Shown one piece after another: positions 1-10,592 of a stretch of 10,592 bases of DNA. Where the stretch lies: the NCBI GenBank assembly GCA_964557845.1, contig CAZLBV010000198.1, positions 1 to 10,592 of the forward strand. The letters are read 5' to 3'. A program made the position numbers and the translations under genes. This DNA comes from an uncultured Eubacteriales bacterium. GTDB taxonomy: Bacteria; Acidobacteriota; Aminicenantia; Aminicenantales; Aminicenantaceae. The notes under the pieces were generated by a model that was not told the origin of the DNA, did no database searches, and was given only the letters and a program-made list of their open reading frames with translations. Each line of letters begins with the position of its first letter. The stretch's first letter is position 1.

Positions 1-777
1 AGCCTGCTGGAGAGTGAACTCTTCGGTCATGTCAAAGGATCCTTTACAGGTGCCGTTGCCAATAAAAAGGGAATGTTCGAAGTCGCTGAGAAGGGGACGC
101 TTTTTTTAGACGAGGTGGGAGAAATGTCTCCCTGGACCCAGGTGAAACTCTTGCGGGCACTCCAGGAAAGAAAAATCCGGAGAGTGGGAGGAACCGAGGA
201 GATACCGGTGGATGTCAGGATCATTGCAGCCTCCAACCAAGACCTGAAAAAAGCGATAGAAGGGGGAAGATTCAGGGAAGATCTTTTCTACCGCTTGAAC
301 GTGATATCTTTAGAAATGCCCCCCCTGAGAAAAAGAAAGGAGGACATACCTTTACTGGTGAACCATTTTCTCCAAAAACACTGTAAAAAGATGAACCGGA
401 AAATGAAAAGGCTCTCCCCGGATGTCATGGCTTTGCTGGAAAGCTACAACTGGCCGGGAAATATAAGGGAGCTTGAGAATACCATCGAGCGGATCATAGC
501 TATTGAGGAAAGGGAAACCATTACCAGGGTGAGCCTTCCCAGTGAGCTGCTGGAACCGCCAAAATCGCAGGATAATGACTTCATGATCGAGCCGGGATTT
601 AATTTAAACAAAACCCTGGATAATATCACCCAAAAGTATATCCATAAGGCTTTAGAATCGGCCAGAGGCAATCTCACTCAGACAGCCTCATTGTTAGGGA
701 TCAATTACCGCAGTCTTCGTTATCTGATTGAAAAATATGATCTGAATGATTCCAAGGATGAGCTGCGGGGGAGTTAG
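1..777 (+). CDS. Sigma-54-dependent Fis-family transcriptional activator (NtrC/PilR-like), 5'-truncated at window edge; AAA+ sigma-54 interaction domain plus C-terminal Fis-type HTH
   Basis: Frame 1 is open from nt 1; the listed ORF 73..777 is only the internal Met. The translation begins [15 protein letters not shown], a GAFTGA-type sigma-54 contact loop. It continues with Walker [10 protein letters not shown], the arginine-finger region RVGG and the sensor-II region RELEN. The C-terminal Fis-type HTH is [38 protein letters not shown]. Stop TAG at 775-777. Position directly upstream of a sigma-54 promoter and a pilin gene suggests PilR. Confidence 0.85.
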
Positions 778-793
778 ATCCGGTGTGTGATCG

Positions 794-843
794 ACAAATG
801 TATGTCAATAATCTGTCAAGGAAATGACAATAAATGTCAATAA
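794..843 (+). promoter_or_regulatory. Putative upstream activator sequence: five phased TG(T/A)CAA half-sites (CGACAA 794, TGTCAA 803, TGTCAA 814, TGACAA 826, TGTCAA 835)
   Basis: Direct repeats at 9-12 bp spacing, lying 70-130 bp upstream of the -24/-12 element. This is the typical bEBP enhancer distance. The TGTC core resembles the tandem (C/G)TGTC PilR sites described upstream of pilA in Pseudomonas aeruginosa. Confidence 0.45.
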
Positions 844-883
844 AAAGAAGAGAAGAAAAAGAATATGATTTTATGTTATTTAT

Positions 884-896
884 TATCAACAGCTTA
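884..896 (+). promoter_or_regulatory. IHF-like site TATCAAcagcTTA (WATCAANNNNTTR) between enhancer repeats and sigma-54 promoter
   Basis: Matches the IHF consensus inside an AT-rich tract. It is placed where DNA bending is normally needed for looping of sigma-54 activators. Confidence 0.35.
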
Positions 897-911
897 GAAA
901 GATTTAAGTGT

Positions 912-927
912 TGGCATAATATTTGCT
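912..927 (+). promoter_or_regulatory. Sigma-54 (RpoN) -24/-12 promoter TGGCATaataTTTGCT
   Basis: TGGCAT-N4-TTTGCT matches 14 of the 16 positions of the TGGCACG-N4-TTGCW consensus. The GG at 913-914 and GC at 925-926 are invariant with exact 10-nt spacing. It is the only such match in an intergenic region of the window. Predicted TSS is near 938, a leader of about 54 nt before the pilin ATG. Confidence 0.7.
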
Positions 928-991
928 ATAATAATAGCGAGTAAATAAAATAAACTGGTAAATAAAGAAACCAGAATTAAGGAGGTTTTAA

Positions 992-1525
992 ATGCTTAAA
1001 AGGAAAAAAGGTTTTACGCTGATCGAGTTATTGATCGTTGTGGCGATCGTTGGGATTTTAGCTGCACTGCTCATCCCCAATGCGATTTCAGCCATGCAGA
1101 AGGCCAAACAGAAAGGCACCATGAAGGATATCGCCACGATTTCTACCGCGCTGACCGACTACGTGACGGATAATGGGATAGCACCTGAACATAATGGTAA
1201 CGTTGATAACACCCTGCAGGCCACTCTTTCTCAGCTCTATCTAAAGATTTGTCCAACTGAGGATCAGTGGGGTAATCCCCTAAATGTTTATTCGGGTCAG
1301 GACGCAGATTTTGACCACAGGGGATGTATTTTTGGTGGGAGAGATGATTTTGTAGTTGAGTCCTTAGGACGTAACAATGAAGAGGATGGTGATGATTATA
1401 ATTCTAATACACCAGAAGCTGGAATGTATACAGTGACGAATATGGCGTCTTTTAACAATGACTTGGTTATGTTTAATGGATCTTGGGTAATCGGACCAGT
1501 TACCAGATCCGGAGCATCGACTTAA
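992..1525 (+). CDS. Type IV pilin / pseudopilin (prepilin N-terminal cleavage-methylation domain; GspG/PilA-like N-terminus, D/N/G-rich C-terminal domain)
   Basis: Strong RBS AGGAGG at 980-985, 6 nt before the ATG. Short basic leader MLKRKKG, then the class III signal FTLIELLIVVAIVGILAALLIP with Phe+1 and Glu+5. The following segment AISAMQKAKQKGTMKDIATISTALTDYVTDNG resembles the GspG/PulG-type alpha1C region. Two Cys residues (C86, C112) could form a disulfide loop. DADFDHRG and EEDGDDYNSN are candidate Ca-binding loops. Confidence 0.85.
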   Translation: MLKRKKGFTLIELLIVVAIVGILAALLIPNAISAMQKAKQKGTMKDIATISTALTDYVTDNGIAPEHNGNVDNTLQATLSQLYLKICPTEDQWGNPLNVYSGQDADFDHRGCIFGGRDDFVVESLGRNNEEDGDDYNSNTPEAGMYTVTNMASFNNDLVMFNGSWVIGPVTRSGAST

Positions 1526-1559
1526 TTTAAGGCGAACCGAGCGTAACGACCAGCCTTTA

Positions 1560-1597
1560 GGCGGCACATCCCGAGTGGGTGCGCCGCCTTTTTTTTT
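1560..1597 (+). terminator. Rho-independent terminator after pilin gene
   Basis: GC-rich hairpin GGCGGCAC / GTGCGCCGCC (1560-1588) followed by a run of 9 T (1589-1597). Confidence 0.75.
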
Positions 1598-1657
1598 GCC
1601 CTTTTTTAACTGCTGCTTGATTTAAGATCTTACTGGGATATAAAATATACCCCGTTC

Positions 1658-2359
1658 ATGCGTACGATACTTTTTCTGCTTATCTTCAGCCCGATCGCGC
1701 TGGCATCTGTCCCCTTCTGGCTGCTATTTTCTCTTCTCAGGCTGATATCGCCTTTATATAGCTTAGGTAAAGGATTGGTGCGGATGGCGTTTTTTTTACT
1801 GGGAATTGAGATCCAAGCTCATGGAAGGGAAAATATTGATAAAAACAAAAATTATATCTTTATGCCCAATCATTTAAGTTTCTTGGACGGACCTTTAATC
1901 GTTATGCTGATCCCGCAGCCGGTCCGGGTCATAGTGAAAAAGGAAGTTTACAAGATACCGGTTTTCAATTATGCCATCCGTAAAGCTGAATTCATACCGG
2001 TTGACAGAGAGGGGAAAGAGGCGGGAAAGCAAAGCATCGAAGCGGCCACAGCTCTCATTAAGCAAAAAAGATATTCTTTTCTGGTTTTTCCCGAAGGAAC
2101 CCGCAGCCGGACAGGAGATCTTCAGGGTTTTAGACGAGGGGGCTTTTTTCTTGCCGTTGACAGTCAAACCCCGATTCTGCCGATTGTTATCAAAGGGTCT
2201 TATGACCTTATGCCGAAAGGCAGTTTTTTCGTAAAAAAAGGGAAAGTAGAGGTGACTTTTCTGCAGTCTGTCCCCATGGATAAATACAACCGGCAGAATA
2301 TGTTAGAATTAATAGATACAGTCAGAGAAAAAATGTCCCTGGAATTATTGAAAACATAG
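1658..2359 (+). CDS. plsC: 1-acyl-sn-glycerol-3-phosphate acyltransferase family protein (PlsC/LPLAT)
   Basis: N-terminal hydrophobic anchor. Acyltransferase motif I NHLSFLDGP (HX4D). Motif III FPEGTRS. Length 233 aa is typical of the family. Possible sigma-70 promoter TTGATT (1617-1622)-N16-TATAAA (1639-1644) lies only about 10 nt before the ATG. No clear Shine-Dalgarno is present, so the start codon is uncertain. Confidence 0.8.
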   Translation: MRTILFLLIFSPIALASVPFWLLFSLLRLISPLYSLGKGLVRMAFFLLGIEIQAHGRENIDKNKNYIFMPNHLSFLDGPLIVMLIPQPVRVIVKKEVYKIPVFNYAIRKAEFIPVDREGKEAGKQSIEAATALIKQKRYSFLVFPEGTRSRTGDLQGFRRGGFFLAVDSQTPILPIVIKGSYDLMPKGSFFVKKGKVEVTFLQSVPMDKYNRQNMLELIDTVREKMSLELLKT

Positions 2360-2372
2360 GAGTGATTTTAAT

Positions 2373-2936
2373 ATGGACTATCAACATGCAGCCCTGGAAC
2401 TTAAAGATGTAATTGAAAGATTTTTCCTTCAGCGGGAAAAAGACTTTGATCAAGCATTGGAGCTTATTCTTCGTGCCTTCCGTTCCGGAAATAAGCTTAT
2501 GGCCTTTGGAAATGGCGGAAGCGCCTCTCAGGCTCAGCATTTTGCGGCGGAGCTGGTGGGCAGATTCCAGAAAGAACGCGTTCCTTTTCCCGCCATCGCC
2601 TTGACCTCCGATACTTCTTTGCTTACAGCCCTTGCCAATGATTATTCCTATGAGATGGTTTTTCACCGCCAGGTTGAAGGGCTCAGCCGGCCGGGAGATG
2701 TAGTGTTTGGGCTTACTACCAGCGGTAGATCCCCTAATGTGGTCGCTGCCTTTAAAAAGGCCAGAGAGATGCAGCTTAATTCTATTGCCTTAACCGGAAA
2801 GGGGGGGGCTGATCTGGCCCCTCTGGTGGATGTGCTTCTTGCTGTTCCTTCAGAAGACACTCCCAGGGTCCAGGAAGCCCATCTCTTCCTCATTCATCTT
2901 CTGGCTCACGAGATAGAAAAGCAGAAGATAGAATAA
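2373..2936 (+). CDS. gmhA: SIS-domain phosphoheptose isomerase (D-sedoheptulose-7-phosphate isomerase GmhA; DiaA-like alternative)
   Basis: Diagnostic GNGGSASQAQHFAAELVGRF motif, TTSGRSPNV and the C-terminal QEAHLFLIHLL region are typical of GmhA/DiaA SIS proteins. RBS AGGAG at 2358-2362. Start is 13 nt after the plsC-like stop, so the two are probably co-transcribed. Confidence 0.8.
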   Translation: MDYQHAALELKDVIERFFLQREKDFDQALELILRAFRSGNKLMAFGNGGSASQAQHFAAELVGRFQKERVPFPAIALTSDTSLLTALANDYSYEMVFHRQVEGLSRPGDVVFGLTTSGRSPNVVAAFKKAREMQLNSIALTGKGGADLAPLVDVLLAVPSEDTPRVQEAHLFLIHLLAHEIEKQKIE

Positions 2937-2939
2937 AAT

Positions 2940-3052
2940 CAGAAGATAGGAGAAACCGAGAAGCCAGGAGTCAGAAGAAAAACCAAAAATCCGAAATCCG
3001 AAGCACGAGATCCGAATGTCGCATTCGGATTTTCTTCTGACTCCTATCTTCT
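2940..3052. repeat. Composite palindromic element between convergent genes: inner perfect hairpin ATCCGAATG-tcg-CATTCGGAT (3010-3030) nested inside an outer inverted repeat (2941-2981 vs 3030-3052); probable bidirectional terminator
   Basis: The inner 9-bp stem with 3-nt loop is followed by TTTTCTTCT on the plus strand. The outer arms are AGAAGATAGGAG...GGAGTCAGAAGAAAA and its exact reverse complement TTTTCTTCTGACTCCTATCTTCT. The 5' arm is interrupted by an 18-nt insertion. It lies between the gmhA stop (2936) and the PEPCK stop (3076). Confidence 0.6.
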
Positions 3053-3075
3053 GGCTTTCAATCTTCTGATCTTTA

Positions 3076-4929
3076 TTATTTCCGGGGGTATATCCCCTCT
3101 CTTCTGGGCCGTGATTTTGTTTCCCAATTATAGGTAAGGGGTTGGGTCTGTTCTTCTTCATCTTCCGTCTCTTTTGGGCTGCCGGGAACCCTCACGCTGC
3201 TTTTTGCTCTGGATTTATCGATCCGGAAAGATCTTTCGGCTGCGTTTAAGACTTCGGTACGAAGGCCTTCCTCTGAGATCTCTTCGGTGAATTCTTTTCT
3301 TCCTTCTACCAGATCATGAATATAATCCTGGATCTGTTCTTGGGAGTAAAATTTTTTTATATCCCATTCCTCAAGTTCCCGGCCTTCCACATGGGTGATC
3401 TCTTTGGTGCCGAGTTGGCCTTTTTCATAGCGGTTGGTCCCGCGCAGATCCCCTCTTTGTATCTGGGCCATGAGGCTGATAGGGACTCGGTTGGCCTTGC
3501 GGACCATCTGTTTTTTGCTGCGGCCGTTTTCTGCATATTCCTTGATTATCTCTCCCATGCCCCCGGTGTTGTACTGCAGAAATTTCAGTTTGTCCGGATA
3601 ATTAGCGGCCAGGGTCATTATGATCTCATAAAAGTGATTGACCTTGGCGCCGCGGGAACCTATGATAAATGGATCCGTGCCCACGATACGGACAGATTCA
3701 CCTGCTTTGAGCGGCTGGCTGGCAAAACTATGGGTGCTTTCTCCCCAGAGATAGGCTAGAGTTGCCTGTTCCGGGGTTAGTTCCTGAGCAAAGGGCATGA
3801 TCGTGTTTCTTCTGGTGATAAAGGCGAACACCAATCCATCCAGTTCCTCGAGCGGAGGGAGATTGATCGATTTTGAAAAGATGCCGACCATTTTTCCTTT
3901 GAGGTTGACCTTTAGCTTCCGGCGCGCTATGACCGCCCGGCCGTTCGCCGTGAGGCTTTCATCCAGAAAGTCCACATCGCCGTTGGATTTGATCATGACA
4001 TTTTCAAACAGGGCGCTTTTATCAATGAGAGCATTATACATGGCTTCCTGGTATTTTTGTTCTACATCGGTCTTAACGAAAAAGTTGTTCTCTGAACCTA
4101 AAGCCGATCCATCCCTGCGCAAAAAGCAGATATCATCCTGAGTAACTAAAGTCTTTTCCCCTTTATCGTAATCCAGTCCGAGCTGATGGCAGGACCAGGT
4201 CGATTTTCCGGTGGCCGTAAGGCCGAATAAAAACACGCCGTAGCGTTTCAACTTGTCATCCGAGCCCCTGACCGTCACTATTTTAGTCCCGGCATGCAGG
4301 CCCAGCATCCCCTCACGATCCGCTGCCCACATGGCCTGCCGGAGAAACCCCTTTTTATCTTCACCCATATAATCGGTGCCCAGCGCGATATTGATGTTGT
4401 ATTCCGGAAGAACCAGCACCTGCTGCCGGATAGGATGCTCCTCAGGGATATGGATCATTATGAATTCAGGCCCCGGCCTTTTTGAAGGCTTGAACATGGT
4501 CGTTCCCCACATGAGCCCCAGCCGGTAATTGATGAGATCTGCTTCAGATAACACCAAGCTGCACATGGGATTATAGGTATCGTTTTCTCCCATCCTACGC
4601 TTGATGAGAAAAAAAGGCAGGGTCCGCAGCAGATGCAAAACTTTATCCAATTCTTCAGGGGCTGCGGCAATCAAAGCTTCCTGCTGGGAGGTCGGCCGAT
4701 GCAGGCGCACGGCGGGATTGCCCAAGTAGACGGTTCTGGGAGCGATGCGACTCGAGATGGCTGATCTCCATCCATAAGAACCGTATTTAGTTTTGATACC
4801 GGTGGCTTTGGCCCTGGGTTCCAGCCATTTCAGGTCTACTCTTTTTATATTAGGGCCGTTAAGCACCACAGCCAGTTCCTGGGCGAATTTTTTATAAGCG
4901 TCTTGGTTGTAGATAGTTTGATCACTCAT
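3076..4929 (-). CDS. pckA: Phosphoenolpyruvate carboxykinase (ATP-type, PckA family) with about 80-aa acidic/basic C-terminal extension
   Basis: Collinear with E. coli PckA motifs. YMGEDKKG matches the kinase-1a motif [20 protein letters not shown] matches the P-loop [19 protein letters not shown] matches the metal-binding [36 protein letters not shown] matches [33 protein letters not shown] matches the adenine-binding LVNTGWNG. Confidence 0.7.
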   Translation of the reverse strand: [617 protein letters not shown]

Positions 4930-4975
4930 TGGTAAGCCATATTGTTTTTCTGAACCATGCCAGGTTTATAAATTG

Positions 4976-7315
4976 TCAGGTTTCCTGGTTAAAAATTATT
5001 TTTTTTATATCTTCATCCTTAGCTGTTCCGCTGTTAAAAATGAAACAGCGTGTGCATTCGAGCAGATGACGGTAAAAATTTCTCTGAAAATCTATTCTTT
5101 CTGGAGTGGTCACCAAAAGATGGGGATTAAAAAAGGGTGAAGCATCGCTTGGGGTCTTCTGGACTCCTATGGTTTCTCCGGCTTCCAGAAAGCGGAGAAC
5201 ATCTTCTGGGTCTGCCTCAAACAATGGAGGCGAGAATTTATCATTTTTAAGAATAAACACCCATTTAAGCGCCGTGCGTTTGACATGTTTGGCCGGGCCC
5301 TCTATCCAGTAGGGATCAAGGAGGGCCATGGATTTTTTCGAGGCCGTATAACAAAAGGGTGAGCCCCTGTCCAGCCGGCAGTCATCTATTTGGAGGCATT
5401 TTTCATTCGTACAATCTTCCTTGCGGGTAATGACGTTTTCGCATTTGCTGTGGTCGAATAGGGATGCCAATTCTGGATAGGAATCGACTGTATTGGTCGG
5501 CATAAACAGTTTCCTGTCGATCGCATCCGCCAGGGGAGTTCCTGCGGAAAAGCGGACGAAAATACAGTCATTGGAATGCAGCTTGGCCTGAGGATCATTT
5601 AGTAGGGAAAAGAAGAGTTCGGTTTTTTTGGTGCCTTTGGGGCCGATCAGTACCAGGCCTTGCCCGTTGAAATCCAGGGACATCCCCCGGACTGCATTGG
5701 AATTGAACAGGCGCTCGGATATATCCATGATCATACCTACTGCCAGGCTCCGGAGGGGACCATAATGATCAGCATTCACTACGATCCCGGTTTTTGTCTC
5801 GCTGTTATAGAAAACCCTTGGTTCCCTTCCCGGGATATTATCAACGGCATAAATGATCCCATGGGGCTCTAGATTGGCCTCTAATTCTGCGGGATACCAG
5901 TTTTCCAGCCAGAAGTCGTACAGATGGGATACATTTGTTCTTAGTTGAACGATCACACCATTTATATTGGCGTTCCATTCAAAATAATTTTGGTATGTGA
6001 GGTGGGATTCCATTTCTCCCACAAGGGCATCACGCATTTGGACCGAAATAGAGCCATCTGCCGGGACTGTTCCCCGGGTGTTGGTGAGAGTATTGTTCAG
6101 AGCGATCTTCTTGACTTTTCGGGCGGTTTTAAGATGGGTCAAAGCTTCGGTGATCCTGTCCATCCCCTTCTCTAGATTTTGCATGGAGGTCGCATAAGAC
6201 AAGCGGATGTAATCATCGGCGCCGAAGGCATCACCCGGAACCACTGCTACCTTGGCTTCCTTAAGCAGGTAATATGCCAGGCCGTAAGAGTTCCTGATCT
6301 GGGTTTGGTTGAATTCTTTTTTGTAATAGGCAGAAAAATTAGGGAATAGATAAAAAGCGCCCTGAGGTTTAAAGCAGGATAATTCCGGGATGCTTTGTAT
6401 GCGCATCAAAACATAATTTCTGCGCCGCTGAAATTCAGCCTGCATTTTCGAAATCTCATGTTGCGGTCCGTTAAGGGCTTCCAAACTGGCTTTTTGGGAG
6501 ATGGAACAGGGATTTGAAGTCGTGTGGCTCTGGATTTTTGCCATCCCGCTGATAATGTCTGCCGGCCCGGCAGTGTAACCGATTCTCCACCCCGTCATGG
6601 AATAGGATTTGGAGACTCCATTGATGATGATCGTTTTTTTCTTAACTTCTTCTCCTAAAGAAGCAAAGCTGAAAAAGCGAAAATCGTCGAAGATGAGTTT
6701 TTCGTAGATCTCATCTGCGATAACATAAATATTCTCTTCCAGGATAATATCGGCTAGAGCCTGGAGTTCGTTTTTTTGGTAGCATGCACCGGTTGGATTA
6801 GAGGGATTGTTTAGAATTAAAGCCTTGGTGGCAGGAGTGATGGCTGCTTTGAGCTGCTCGGGAGTGAGGAGAAAGCCATTTTCTTCTCTGGTGGGGATGA
6901 AAACGGTTTTACCTTCAGCCAGAGAGACCGCATGTGGGTAGGTTACCCAGTAAGGCGCGGGTACTATGACTTCATCTCCTTTGTTTATAATGGCTTGGAT
7001 GGCATGATACAGAGAACTTTTTGCTCCTGTGGAAACAATTATTTCATTCCGTTCATAGGAAAGGCCCGAATCTTCTTTGAATTTCTTGATTATCGCATCT
7101 TTGAGCAGAGGGATGCCTTCTGCCTGAGTGTATTTGGTGAAATCATCTTTTATGGCCTGGATCCCGGCGTTTTTTATATTTTCTGGAGTTGCGAAATCAG
7201 GCTCGCCCACACTGAGATCGACGACGTCTATCCCCTCGGCCTTCATAGCCTTGGCCTTGCTGGTTACCTTGAGGGTGGGGGATTCCCCAATTAAATTTGC
7301 CTTTTCTGATACCAT
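4976..7315 (-). CDS. Fusion protein: N-terminal class-I aspartate aminotransferase (aa 1-~397; nt ~6125-7315) + C-terminal truncated, motif-divergent PEP-carboxykinase-like P-loop domain (aa ~400-779; nt 4976-~6118)
   Basis: N-terminal half has GEPDF, [15 protein letters not shown] and the PLP-lysine motif [13 protein letters not shown] (bacterial AspAT). C-terminal half is collinear with PEPCK. [24 protein letters not shown] aligns with [25 protein letters not shown]. P-loop [13 protein letters not shown] is present. LHSNDCIFV aligns with [39 protein letters not shown] aligns with [38 protein letters not shown] aligns with LVNTGWN. The kinase-1a Lys-Lys and the first metal-binding Asp are not conserved. 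RBS AAGGAA upstream; 30-nt gap to the flotillin stop. Confidence 0.8.
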   Translation of the reverse strand: [779 protein letters not shown]

Positions 7316-7345
7316 TTTATTCCTTTTTTATACTAATAAGAGGAA

Positions 7346-8755
7346 TTAATTCTCTTCTTTTTCTTCCTCAGGATTCAGTTTATCTTTCATATATTTCTTT
7401 ATATCGACTCCAGTAAGAGATTTAACCACCTCGGGCATCTGGGCAATTATCTCAGCGACCTGACCCGTAATTTTTGAGGCGCCTGTTCCCTTGTCCCCTC
7501 CGATCAGCACGATCTTCTCGATCTTAGAGAGGGGCTCAGAGACGGCCCTGGCTAATTCCGGTAAACTGTTGAGGTACATTTCCAGAATGGCTGCCTGGTT
7601 GAATTTTTCCCAGGCTTTAGCTTTTTCCAGCATGGATTCGGCTTCGGCGAATCCGCTTAATTTGATCTTTTCCGCTTCCGCTGATCCTTCAAGCTTCATA
7701 GCGACTGACTTTCCTTTGGCTTCTGACTGGATGCGGTATTCTTCTGCATCTGCCTCTGCTTTTATCTGATTCTTTCTGGCTTCAGCCGGTTTAATGACAT
7801 TGGATTCAAGTTCTTTTTCGCGGCGTTCGATCTCCAGTTCCTCGATTTTTATGGCTTCCTGTTTTTCGATCTGCTTGACCTTGGCTTCCTGTTTCTTTAA
7901 TTCCTGATTGATCTTGTAACGTTCAATTTCGTAGGCAAAATCCGCGATGGCTTTTTTCTGATTGACTTCTACCTGTGACTCAGCTTTTTTAGCTTCATTC
8001 TCCCATTGGGCTTTTGCGATCAGGGCTTCGGCTTGCAGCCGGGCAACCTCTCCTTCTTTTTTCGCTTCTGAGGATTTGATGATGGCTTCTTTATCGGTTT
8101 CAGCCTCTGCAATGGCAGCATCCCGCTTGACTGCCGCGATCTGAGGTTTTCCCAGAGCAGCCAGGTATCCCTGTGTGTCGCTGATATCTTTCAGGGAAAA
8201 AGACATGATAAGCAGCCCCATTTGTGAAAAATCCTTTTGAGCTGCAGCGAACACATTCTGGGAGAATTCATCGCGATTGCGGTAGATCTGCTCAACTGTC
8301 ATTTTACCAAGAACTTCACGCATTTTTCCTTCCAGTATATTGACCGACACGTCCCTGATGCCTTCCTTGCCGATCCCCAGAAATTGTTCTGCGGCTTTTT
8401 GAATGGATTGTTCCGAGGATTCGATCTTAACCTGGGCCACCGCCTCTGCCATGATATGTACACCGCCAAAAGTCAGCACTTCCGGAGTTTTGATGTTTAT
8501 GGAGATGATCTCCATAGGAAGCACATCTACGGTTTCCAGAAAGGGGAGAACAAAGGTGCCGCCGCCGACTCGGTAGCGGTATCCGATCTTGGTTTTAGTC
8601 CCATCCGGGGCAATGGCTGTTCTTTTCCTTCCGCCGGATATTATGAGCACTTCATGTGGGCCGACTTTACGGTATTGTTTGGCCATGAGAAAAGAAAGCA
8701 GGCCAAGGATGACTATGATTATTCCGAAAAGAATTAAATAGGAGACAAGACTCAT
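7346..8755 (-). CDS. Flotillin / SPFH (band-7) domain protein (FloT/YuaG-like) with N-terminal TM helix and long Glu/Ala/Lys-rich coiled coil
   Basis: N-terminal hydrophobic helix LILFGIIIVILGLLSFLMA. SPFH core HEVLIISGG...VLPFLETV...TVEQIYRNRDEF. Extended EA-rich heptad region (AEAETDKEA...KELESNVIKPAEARKNQIKAEADAEEY). C-terminal flotillin tail LIGGDKGTGASKITGQVAEI. RBS AGGAGG 5 nt before the ATG. Confidence 0.85.
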   Translation of the reverse strand: MSLVSYLILFGIIIVILGLLSFLMAKQYRKVGPHEVLIISGGRKRTAIAPDGTKTKIGYRYRVGGGTFVLPFLETVDVLPMEIISINIKTPEVLTFGGVHIMAEAVAQVKIESSEQSIQKAAEQFLGIGKEGIRDVSVNILEGKMREVLGKMTVEQIYRNRDEFSQNVFAAAQKDFSQMGLLIMSFSLKDISDTQGYLAALGKPQIAAVKRDAAIAEAETDKEAIIKSSEAKKEGEVARLQAEALIAKAQWENEAKKAESQVEVNQKKAIADFAYEIERYKINQELKKQEAKVKQIEKQEAIKIEELEIERREKELESNVIKPAEARKNQIKAEADAEEYRIQSEAKGKSVAMKLEGSAEAEKIKLSGFAEAESMLEKAKAWEKFNQAAILEMYLNSLPELARAVSEPLSKIEKIVLIGGDKGTGASKITGQVAEIIAQMPEVVKSLTGVDIKKYMKDKLNPEEEKEEN

Positions 8756-8854
8756 TCTGACCTCCTTTGAATGATACCTTTGTTATTTTCGATAAAAATT
8801 GTGTAATATTAAATCATATAATTTTTTTCGTGTATTTTTCAACAGATTTATCAT

Positions 8855-8897
8855 AGATATAGATATTTCCAGTTATTTAATCGAAATATCTATATCT
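8855..8897. repeat. Perfect 15-bp inverted repeat AGATATAGATATTTC-N13-GAAATATCTATATCT overlapping the stop codon of the GT2 gene
   Basis: The right arm encodes the C-terminal RYRYF of the GT2 protein. The left arm lies in the 121-bp gap upstream of the flotillin operon. It could act as a terminator-like hairpin for the GT2 transcript or as a palindromic operator. Confidence 0.4.
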
Positions 8898-9575
8898 TAT
8901 TAAATGAAATATCGCGGCTAACCCATCCTTCCACCCGATCTTTTTTCCCTCATCATAGTCCCTTCCAGAATAAGAGATAGGGACTTCATAGATGCGGCAT
9001 TTCAATTTTGCTAATTTTATGGTTATTTCCGGTTCGAAACCGAATCGGTTTGACTTTAGTGTTATCTTATCAAGAATTTCCTTTTTAATGACTTTATAAC
9101 AAGTCTCCATATCCGATAGATTCAAATTTGACAGCATATTTGAGAATGTGGTGAGAACCTTATTTCCGACATAGTGCCAGAAAAAAAGAACCCGGTGAGG
9201 GCCTCCAAGAAACCTGGAGCCATAAACAGCGTCTGCTCTGCCGTCTAAGATCGGTTCCAACAAGACCGGGTATTCAGCGGGATTGTATTCAAGATCGGCA
9301 TCCTGAATAAGAACTAAGTCACCGGAGGCATGGGAGAATCCGGTTCGCAGGGCTGCGCCTTTGCCTTGGTTCTTTTCATGAAAAAAAACTTTTATTTTAT
9401 TCCCTTGAAGCTTTTTTAGGATTTCTTTCCCACCATCCTGGGAACAGTCATCTACCAGGATTATCTCTTTTTCCAGCGGGATATCAACTTTTTGAACTCG
9501 GTTGAGGATCTTTTCAATAGTATTCTTTTCGTTGTAGATCGGAATGACTATAGAAATTTTGTTAAAGGCATTCAT
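8877..9575 (-). CDS. GT2-family polyprenyl-phosphate glycosyltransferase (DPM1/ArnC/GtrB-like catalytic domain, no C-terminal TM segments)
   Basis: N-terminal SIVIPIYNE...[12 protein letters not shown] and DXD-like LIQDADLEY are typical of GT-A fold GT2 dolichyl/undecaprenyl-phosphate sugar transferases. Start ATG overlaps the upstream gene's TAA (TAATG). Confidence 0.75.
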
Positions 9576-10516
9576 TATTTGTTTGCAGTTAATTTCTTTT
9601 TAAAATAATCGATTGTTTTTGTCAGGCCTTCCTCCCAAGAAGTTTTCGGCGACCATTTGAGCATTTTTTTGGCCAAAGATATATCCGGACATCTTCTGAC
9701 CGGATCATCAGAGGGAAGAGGGTTAAACTTGATCTTGGATCTACTTCCGGTCAGTTTAATGATTTTTTCAGCCAGCTCCAGAATAGTGCCCTCATCCGGA
9801 TTGCCAAGATTTACCGGGCCGATAAAATCTTCTTTGTCCATCATCAACTGGATCGCCTCGATCAAATCAGTCACAAAGCAGAACGAGCGAGTCTGGCTTC
9901 CGTCTCCATAAATGGTTAAAGGTTCCTCTTTGAGAGCCTGGACCACAAAATTACTGACAACCCGGCCATCATCAACAGCCATGCGGGGGCCATAAGTATT
10001 AAAGATCCGTGCGATCTTTATGTCTACATGATTCTGCCGGAAATAGTCCATAGCCAGAGTTTCCGCCACCCGTTTTCCTTCATCATAACAGCTCCTGATA
10101 CCGATGGGATTCACATGGCCCCAATAATCTTCAGGTTGAGGATGGACATCTGGATTCCCGTAGACCTCCGAGGTAGATGCAAGTAAAATCCTGGCTTTTG
10201 TCCTCTTGGCTAAACCTAACATGTTGATAGTACCCAAAACATTGGTCTTGATCGTCTTGATCGCATTATACTGGTAATGAATAGGAGAAGCAGGAGATGC
10301 CAGGTGAAAGATCTGGTCCACTTCCACAAACAGAGGTCGTATGATGTCGTGACGTATAACTTCAAAATAGGGAAAACCGGTTAAATGCCGGATGTTGTCT
10401 TTATGCCCTGAAAAAAAATTATCCAGGCACAGCACGTCATCGCCTTTTTCCAGTAAAGCTTGGCAGAGATGACTTCCTAGAAAACCGGCTCCTCCCGTAA
10501 CCAGAATACGCTTCAT
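9575..10516 (-). CDS. uxs: UDP-glucuronic acid decarboxylase (UDP-xylose synthase, extended SDR)
   Basis: Collinear with UXS1-type enzymes. [14 protein letters not shown] Rossmann motif. [20 protein letters not shown], the catalytic YDEGKR motif, [10 protein letters not shown] and [23 protein letters not shown] upstream. Confidence 0.88.
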
Positions 10517-10592
10517 CCTTTTTCTCCTTCATTTTGACCGTAGGCAATAAAGAGCATAGATTTAGTCTTGAGAACCTGTTTTTGCATCGCTA

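Follow-up and report, generated by a model that had tools for sequence, protein, structure and literature searches.

A predicted aspartate aminotransferase with a degenerate PEP-carboxykinase-like domain, encoded beside an intact PEP carboxykinase homologue

Oxaloacetate is unstable and is kept at very low concentrations, and how it is handed over from one enzyme to another is a long-standing question, studied mostly in complexes of mitochondrial malate dehydrogenase, citrate synthase, and aspartate aminotransferase (AspAT). Here we ask what is made by a gene that seems to join two enzymes of oxaloacetate metabolism in one polypeptide. The gene lies on contig CAZLBV010000198.1 of assembly GCA_964557845.1, from an uncultured Eubacteriales bacterium placed by GTDB in the Aminicenantaceae; the whole stretch analyzed, positions 1 to 10,592, is referred to as the window. 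An earlier note, made from the sequence alone, described the product as an AspAT fused to a domain resembling ATP-dependent phosphoenolpyruvate (PEP) carboxykinase (PEPCK). We find that the fusion is genuine, that its C-terminal domain has lost catalytic residues of PEPCK, and that the next gene encodes a PEPCK homologue in which these residues are intact. The fused domain may serve as an adaptor or sensor that couples the aminotransferase to this neighbor.

The fusion gene and its two halves

In the open reading frame (ORF) list of the window, the fusion is one uninterrupted ORF that runs in a single frame from an ATG to a stop codon and encodes 779 amino acids (aa; Table 1). Scanning one genome per species, we obtained 20 independent loci from metagenome-assembled genomes (MAGs; L001-L020), labeled Aminicenantes, Saccharicenans, Zixibacteria, Caldithrix, Acidobacteria, and others. 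The architecture is thus present in several phyla, and in 19 of the 20 loci one stop-to-stop ORF of 779-798 aa spans both domains. The sole broken copy, L010, is interrupted within the aminotransferase domain rather than at the junction. Entries identical to the 779-aa protein come from NCBI, JGI, ENA, and Logan assemblies, and the 90% cluster to which it belongs contains at least seven full-length 779-aa members. In databases, the protein is named only "aspartate/methionine/tyrosine aminotransferase," which leaves approximately 380 residues without annotation.

The earlier note had raised the concern that an assembly or sequencing frameshift near nucleotide (nt) 6120 joined two ordinary adjacent genes. 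Within the 90% cluster, two proteins (391 aa and 402 aa) are indeed split, as an artifact might predict, but in both the frameshift follows VPGDAFG, inside the aminotransferase domain and not at the junction. Moreover, the continuous ORFs come from different studies as well as different phyla, and the junction segment is conserved. With these frameshift sites, the 19 intact loci, and the record from several assemblies, the likelihood of an artifact is negligible and we rejected this explanation. Since the fusion is intact in nearly all loci across several phyla and in at least seven assemblies, and since its C-terminal domain is 44%-68% identical across loci with many invariant residues, we conclude that it is real and under selection.

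The junction, LKTAKKVKR..LNN..T in the family consensus, is conserved, and N9 and T12 are nearly invariant. Its LxNxxT portion is already the N-terminal strand of the C-terminal domain and is also found at the N terminus of a standalone homologue, P0117. In a model of the full-length protein (mean predicted local distance difference test [pLDDT] 85.3, predicted template modeling score [pTM] 0.52), both halves are confidently folded, the junction segment has a pLDDT of 66-86, and no fixed packing between the domains is predicted. The model is consistent with a module tethered to an aminotransferase. In the literature, we found no description of an aminotransferase-PEPCK-fold fusion or of a PEPCK pseudoenzyme of this kind, in keeping with the earlier note, which knew of no characterized example. 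What is new is the domain architecture and the degenerate PEPCK subfamily; the components belong to known superfamilies.

The sequence of the N-terminal half is that of a complete aminotransferase of the AspAT type, as the earlier note had proposed. Residues 30-388 match PF00155 (Aminotran_1_2; E 2.8e-79, 267 bits against a cut-off of 19.7), and the lysine motif that would bind pyridoxal phosphate (PLP) is at residues 235-247. The closest solved relatives are Rhizobium meliloti AspAT B (6f35, E 1.5e-108), 1j32, the Thermus enzyme 1bkg, and the Arabidopsis enzyme 5wmh. These class Ib aspartate/prephenate aminotransferases (6f35/6f77, Phormidium 1j32, 1bkg, and Arabidopsis PAT 5wmh) align end to end with the N-terminal 395 aa of the fusion (E 1e-108 to 1e-91). 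Their PLP-lysine, NPxNPTG, and R(I/L)SYA motifs are also intact in the fusion, whose IRLSYATS aligns with 6f35. Unlike the fusion, none of the solved or curated class Ib relatives has a C-terminal PEPCK-fold domain. The top NCBIfam models were aspartate transaminase PRK06107 (449 bits against 617) and asp_aminotase_Arch (419 against 550). As scores fall under every NCBIfam equivalog cut-off, we leave the substrate range wide (aspartate, aromatic amino acids, or prephenate), with AspAT as the best guess for the substrate class.

The identity of the C-terminal domain (residues 400-779) is not evident from sequence searches. It matched no Pfam family at E ≤ 10, and among NCBIfam models it matched only that of the HprK kinase, TIGR00679 (E 0.16, 11 bits); neither PF01293 nor the NCBIfam pckA models were matched above threshold. 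A phmmer search of PDB sequences returned only a chance P-loop match to Lon, and BLASTP detected no similarity to the neighboring PEPCK. Structure comparison and profile-profile alignment gave a clear answer, and on these the assignment rests. An AlphaFold2 model of the domain, built from 48 homologues, has a pLDDT of 90.6 and a pTM of 0.89, and the top 35 Foldseek matches in the PDB are all ATP-PEPCKs (E 1e-17 to 2e-15, query TM 0.65-0.75). A profile that combines the family and its unfused relatives can be aligned to one of ATP-PEPCK with 99.4% probability (E 1.6e-20, 347 columns), spanning E. coli Pck residues 66-464, so that the equivalent of R65 falls outside the aligned region. A first hhalign comparison, of a narrow profile of the fused clade with the single E. 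coli Pck sequence, had given 31% probability and a different register at Y207 and K212. With the canonical unfused relatives included, the probability rose and this register was corrected; the two alignments agree elsewhere, and we used the second. Thus, of the searches that bear on the earlier note's proposal of an approximately 380-aa domain collinear with ATP-PEPCK, the Pfam and NCBIfam models gave nothing above threshold, and the fold and profile comparisons upheld it.

Judged by these models, the domain is a compact version of the whole PEPCK fold, with both lobes, rather than an HprK-like half. It shares the two-lobe fold of ATP-PEPCK (PckA, PF01293; 1aq2, Trypanosoma cruzi 1ii2, and Thermus 1j3b) but is approximately 140 residues shorter, lacking the adenine-binding tail and everything N-terminal to E. 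coli residue 66. It also differs from these enzymes in its Cys-rich insertion, its fusion to an aminotransferase, and its failure to match any PEPCK sequence model. The three motifs quoted in the earlier note are present (GPKGTKKTE, residues 558-566; a 20-residue block, residues 694-713; and FNSGT, residues 760-764), and the PEPCK equivalences given for them agree with the profile alignment, which pairs GPKGTKKTE with E. coli GLSGTGKTT and FNSG with VNTG. We also considered an HprK-type kinase as the closest kind and rejected it: only the P-loop core matches, with approximately 135 residues aligned and scores far under the thresholds of Hpr_kinase_C and TIGR00679. The HprK/P C-terminal domain has neither the N-terminal lobe nor the C-terminal motifs of PEPCK, both of which are found in the window's domain; the HprK-only layout is absent.

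Within the Cys-rich insertion, C247 never varies and C236 and C256 almost never do (domain numbering), and the pLDDT is 76-87. These cysteines may form a metal site (zinc or iron-sulfur) or disulfides. The cluster is missing from P0135, an archaeal protein described below, and from many canonical unfused members.

Catalytic residues of the fused domain, its neighbor, and its relatives

The earlier note implied that the fused domain is itself a working PEPCK that converts oxaloacetate. We compared the catalytic positions, using E. coli Pck numbering and giving the window's residues in domain numbering (adding 399 yields the position in the full protein). Two of the three Mn2+ ligands (K213, H232, and D269) are replaced, K213 by S124 and H232 by R144; the Asp alone is kept, as D184. 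At positions that bind oxaloacetate or PEP, Y207 is H118 and R333 is M264, and at the phosphate-binding position K288 is P207. K212, S250, and D268 are replaced by R123, K161, and N183, respectively. In the P-loop, the Walker Lys and Thr are kept (K254 as K165 and T255 as T166) and the preceding Walker Gly, G253, is K164; the kinase-1a pattern G-x-x-G-x-G-K-[ST] is absent from the domain. Also retained are E282 and the ENV and NSG motifs. Most of the replaced positions are covered by the E. coli Pck mutants named in PDB entry titles (Y207F, K212I/C, K213S, S250A, K254S, D269N, and R65Q). The fused domain is probably not a working PEPCK, and this part of the earlier claim does not hold.

These replacements characterize the fused clade. 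Among 88 aminotransferase-linked members, Arg stands at the H232 position in 83 of 84 and at the K212 position in 82 of 86. Only 11 of 81 retain the Walker Gly, the D268 position is Asn in 61 of 77, and the K288 position is Pro in 58 of 74. An Arg equivalent to R333 remains in only 12 of 65, and a Tyr equivalent to Y207 in only 18 of 84. A comparison group of 75 unlinked members, picked for His at the H232 position, has Tyr (62/73) and Lys (66/75) at the Y207 and K212 positions, the P-loop Gly (69/72) and Lys (66/72), D268 as Asp (59/69), D269 (65/69), Arg or Lys at the K288 position (49/56), and Arg at the R333 position (41/43). In a separate alignment of 16 unlinked proteins, the invariant columns are exactly these catalytic residues. 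The K213 position is Ser in all unfused relatives, as in the window. Since the unfused relatives keep the catalytic residues, the loss is a particular trait of the fused clade.

The P-loop itself differs between subclades of the fused clade (GTKKTE, GTGKAT, GTGKLG, GMGRGT, and NVKKER), the Lys position being K, R, or L and the Thr position T, S, A, L, V, M, or G. Such variation is hard to reconcile with conserved Mg-ATP chemistry. The domain is nevertheless clearly constrained. Invariant across the fused clade are R60, N62, H65, H86, R98, K225, E227, N228, D268, W271, R281, N331, and N362 (domain numbering). At the same loci, it diverges faster than the aminotransferase domain (59%-79% identity) or the PEPCK neighbor (62%-77%).

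A full-length ATP-PEPCK homologue, which the earlier note overlooked, is encoded directly downstream on the same strand, 46 nt from the stop codon of the fusion; the two genes are probably in one operon. This 617-aa protein keeps Y207, G209, E210, K212, K213, H232, K254, D268, D269, E282, K288, and R333; T255 is Ser, as allowed by a GK[ST] P-loop, and R65 is probably retained with an offset of one residue. By sequence it is a divergent branch of ATP-PEPCK, scoring 281 bits against the NF006821 cut-off of 369 and 31 bits against the 590 of the pckA equivalog TIGR00224, and its orthologues in Aminicenantes MAGs are annotated ATP-PEPCK. In 15 of the 17 informative loci, the PEPCK gene and the fusion are direct neighbors. 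L018 has the order PEPCK, flotillin, fusion, so that the PEPCK gene lies beyond a flotillin gene yet is still clustered. The neighbor is the likely catalytic partner of the fusion. Its C-terminal approximately 60 aa form a charged low-complexity extension past the PEPCK core (…SPKETEDEEEQTQPLTYNWETKSRPRREGIYPRK), over which similarity between orthologues fades; alignments to the L016 (Caldithrix-like) and L018 proteins end at about residues 568-584.

An exhaustive profile search placed 436 representative clusters in the mini-PEPCK family, as we call the compact domain and its relatives. They include unfused proteins of approximately 370-410 aa that are annotated as hypothetical (P0117, P0124-P0134, and P0399-P0470; loci L021, L026, and L028-L033) and are mostly archaeal (Bathyarchaeia, Methanosarcinales, and soil archaea). 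P0117 is 32% identical to the window's domain over 97% of its length, has the same length, and begins with the same LxNxxT strand. These proteins carry no aminotransferase and are approximately 140 aa shorter than PckA. They keep YYGQxK, H, APTGTGK[ST]T, DD, ERxYxRT, EN, and R, where the fused domain is degenerate. Canonical members align over their full length with the NF006821 PEPCK model (E 3e-13), which suggests that the mini family derives from an NF006821-type PEPCK. Going by these motifs, the unfused proteins might be compact carboxykinases.

The unfused family had no conserved neighbors at the loci examined, and a metagenome scan gave a single locus. In L026, the gene overlaps an arginase-family gene by 4 nt. 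Another member of the mini-PEPCK family, P0197 (754 aa), contains an intein splicing domain (PF14890, E 1.5e-16) at about residues 216-393, just past the P-loop region. Matches of 350-430 aa that might have been natural standalone forms of the fused-type domain were mostly rejected, as they begin with an aminotransferase tail or an internal Met or come from short contigs; genuine standalone forms are confined to the more distant canonical family. The label PF27840 ("ScmC") was also set aside, as it is found only in weak precomputed matches to distant unfused relatives, and TIGR04249 reaches just 15 bits where the cut-off is 125. PF07475, too, is matched only weakly by the unfused family. A literature search for ScmC found nothing relevant, only unrelated acronyms.

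Two further proteins join a mini-domain to PEPCK instead of to an aminotransferase. P0135 (899 aa, in three assemblies; L023:8001-10700, L024, and L025) consists of an N-terminal mini-domain followed by a PEPCK. Its mini-domain, 32% identical to the window's, carries Arg where His would be expected, and its P-loop has been destroyed (GSSENDIAT). Its PEPCK part is an orthologue of the window's neighbor (40% identity over 546 aa) and is catalytically complete. P0396 (L027:1316-3082, from a JGI sample) has the same layout and is 49% identical to P0135 over the mini-domain query region; the degenerate motifs were read in P0135 alone. P0396 adjoins a ribosomal protein S8e gene, and a related fragment is labeled Jordarchaeaceae, from which we take these fusions to be archaeal. 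Their neighbors include V4R, TFIIE-like, and ribosomal S8e genes. The order of mini-domain then PEPCK in these proteins is the order of the domains in the bacterial gene cluster.

Flotillin and the other genes of the window

A gene for a flotillin-like membrane scaffold protein lies 30 nt upstream of the fusion, and such a gene is directly upstream in 18 of 19 informative loci from several phyla. In L018, it stays with the fusion although the PEPCK gene has moved. The shortness of the two gaps between flotillin, fusion, and PEPCK genes in the window suits an operon. A promoter-like site upstream of the flotillin gene is a weak candidate for the start of a flotillin-fusion-PEPCK operon, and we found no minus-strand terminator-like sites in either gap between the three genes. 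Both observations count for little, since the numbers of sites in the scan are no higher than expected by chance.

The remaining genes of the window flank this cluster (Table 1). Upstream of the flotillin gene and on the same strand are a glycosyltransferase gene and an epimerase gene that share a single base (9575); synteny of these envelope-sugar genes is seen in several Aminicenantes loci. On the opposite strand, an acyltransferase gene and a SIS-domain gene are oriented toward the 3′ end of the PEPCK gene, convergent with it, and the SIS gene is kept at this position in most Aminicenantes loci. At the far end, the sigma-54-dependent activator gene probably begins at or past the edge of the window, as its relatives reach approximately 490 aa. 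It is followed by a gene for a pilin-like protein, and this pair is also beside the cluster in L002, L008, and L010.

Table 1. Positions of the features discussed, in window coordinates (T2SS, type II secretion system)
Feature	Position	Strand	Evidence or remark
Sigma-54-dependent activator, C-terminal part	73..777	plus	PF00158 positions 89-167, AAA lid, Fis-type helix-turn-helix
Type IV pilin/T2SS pseudopilin-like protein	992..1525	plus	N-terminal methylation motif
PlsC-type acyltransferase	1658..2359	plus	
SIS-domain protein, phosphoheptose-isomerase-like	2373..2936	plus	
ATP-PEPCK homologue, 617 aa, full catalytic set	3076..4929	minus	PF01293 E 8.2e-26, 91 bits vs cut-off 26.5
C-terminal extension of ATP-PEPCK homologue	3076..3260	minus	
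Fusion gene, predicted AspAT domain then degenerate mini-PEPCK domain	4976..7315	minus	779 aa plus stop, ORF list
Compact PEPCK-fold domain (mini-PEPCK, predicted), aa 400-779	4979..6118	minus	catalytically degenerate
FNSGT motif	5024-5038	minus	
20-residue block	5177-5236	minus	
Cysteine cluster C-x9-C-x4-C-x5-C-x8-C, aa 625-655	5351..5443	minus	insertion between ENV motif and R333-equivalent position
Aberrant P-loop GPKGTKKTE	5618..5644	minus	Walker Lys and Thr kept, preceding Gly replaced by Lys
VRGMS, aa 542-546	5678..5692	minus	Arg in place of Mn-ligand His (E. coli H232)
Junction segment, aa 396-424	6044..6130	minus	conserved in family consensus
Class I (subgroup Ib) aspartate-aminotransferase domain (predicted), aa 1-395	6131..7315	minus	PF00155, 6f35 relatives
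PLP-lysine motif	6575..6613	minus	aligns with same motif of 6f35
Flotillin/SPFH-domain membrane scaffold protein, 469 aa	7346..8755	minus	PF01145 E 7e-28, PF15975
Promoter-like site upstream of flotillin gene	8813..8842	minus	10/12 consensus match; site totals at chance level
Family-2 glycosyltransferase	8877..9575	minus	
NAD-dependent epimerase/dehydratase, UDP-glucuronate decarboxylase-like	9575..10516	minus	

What the fused domain may do

We favor the explanation that the fusion is an active class Ib AspAT carrying a pseudo-PEPCK, a compact and catalytically degenerate copy of ATP-PEPCK that would no longer interconvert oxaloacetate and PEP; the true carboxykinase would be the product of the next gene. 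Class I aminotransferases are obligate homodimers. The pseudo-PEPCK would act in docking, in ligand sensing, or in both, and would pair the dimeric aminotransferase with the neighboring PEPCK, so that oxaloacetate from one enzyme could be handed over to the other. The reactions would run from aspartate and 2-oxoglutarate through oxaloacetate to PEP and CO2 or, in anaerobes, from PEP and CO2 through oxaloacetate to aspartate. We would give an even chance to this role of the domain as an adaptor or sensor coupling AspAT to the adjacent PEPCK. The metabolic link that the earlier note drew between the two activities through oxaloacetate is thus supported by conserved gene adjacency and by the archaeal domain fusion, rather than by catalysis in the fused domain.

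Several observations weigh against this explanation. The linkage to flotillin is tighter than the linkage to PEPCK, and an adaptor does not account for it. L013 and L014, two of the 17 informative loci, have no PEPCK gene nearby. In the Aminicenantes subclade the loop is constrained to G-P-x-G-T-x-K-[TS]-[ED], which includes the Walker Lys and Thr, and D269, E282, ENV, and NSG are retained as well, so that a domain of this type might bind phosphate or nucleotide or even have a non-canonical activity. The invariant R60, H86, R98, R123, R144, and R281 could make up a new active site rather than a mere interface. Finally, the residue equivalences come from a profile alignment and a predicted structure.

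Some of these features would also suit a domain that is still a catalytic PEPCK, with a single polypeptide channeling oxaloacetate between two active sites and the downstream PEPCK a redundant paralogue: the whole PEPCK fold is there, the retained residues and motifs include the Walker pair, and the P-loop is constrained inside the Aminicenantes subclade. We consider this very unlikely, given that the replacements extend to Mn ligands (H232 to Arg and K213 to Ser) and to Y207, R333, K288, D268, and G253, mostly positions that have been targets of E. coli Pck mutant structures and that unfused relatives keep. Moreover, no PEPCK model matches the domain, and a complete PEPCK is encoded next door. 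The systematic change of site His and Lys to Arg (R144 and R123) and the retention of other cleft residues (D269, ENV, NSG, and the P-loop backbone) could instead reflect an allosteric sensor, in which a remodeled, Arg-rich former active site needs no metal to bind a metabolite (oxaloacetate, PEP, a nucleotide, or (pyro)phosphate, for example) and regulates the aminotransferase to which it is joined; contact with the neighbor would be unnecessary. Flexibly tethered domains, as the low pTM of the full-length model suggests, and the two loci that have the fusion without an adjacent PEPCK gene would fit such a sensor. However, it leaves unexplained both the conserved PEPCK adjacency and the archaeal fusion of a degenerate domain to PEPCK, and a single conserved phosphate ligand is hard to square with a P-loop that differs so much from one subclade to the next; we regard a sensor of this kind as unlikely.

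A new catalytic activity is also conceivable, for example a kinase or phosphotransferase that acts through the xK[ST] loop on another carboxylate or on a substrate derived from an amino acid and so extends the aminotransferase reaction. The invariant polar residues that are the clade's own (R60, N62, H65, H86, and the rest of the set) speak for it, as do the conserved Cys cluster and the conservation of K165, T/S166, and E/D167 in the Aminicenantes subclade. Against this, the Walker Lys and Thr vary over the fused clade as a whole, the neighboring genes suggest no candidate substrate except oxaloacetate and PEP, and the domain evolves faster than either the aminotransferase or the PEPCK neighbor, making this possibility quite improbable.

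An adaptor or sensor role could also be part of a broader history, which we offer tentatively and hold to be rather doubtful as a whole. A duplicated PEPCK may have become a pseudoenzyme adaptor that heterodimerizes with the catalytic PEPCK, fused to PEPCK in some archaea and to AspAT in Aminicenantes, Zixibacteria, Calditrichota, and others. The bacterial form would organize an aspartate-oxaloacetate-PEP metabolon, possibly at the membrane through flotillin, and the unfused, catalytically complete relatives of approximately 380 aa would be an unrecognized class of compact archaeal PEPCK-type carboxykinases.

At this locus, an aminotransferase that would make or use oxaloacetate carries a dead copy of the enzyme encoded by the adjacent gene, and in an archaeal lineage that dead copy is joined to the enzyme itself; this is a case in which the hand-over of oxaloacetate would be genetically hard-wired and could therefore be tested. 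Should the pseudo-PEPCK turn out to act in docking, it would plainly illustrate how an enzyme of central metabolism can give rise to a pseudoenzyme that works as an assembly adaptor, and it would clarify the flow of carbon and nitrogen, in amino-acid fermentation or anaplerosis, in abundant uncultured phyla of sediments.

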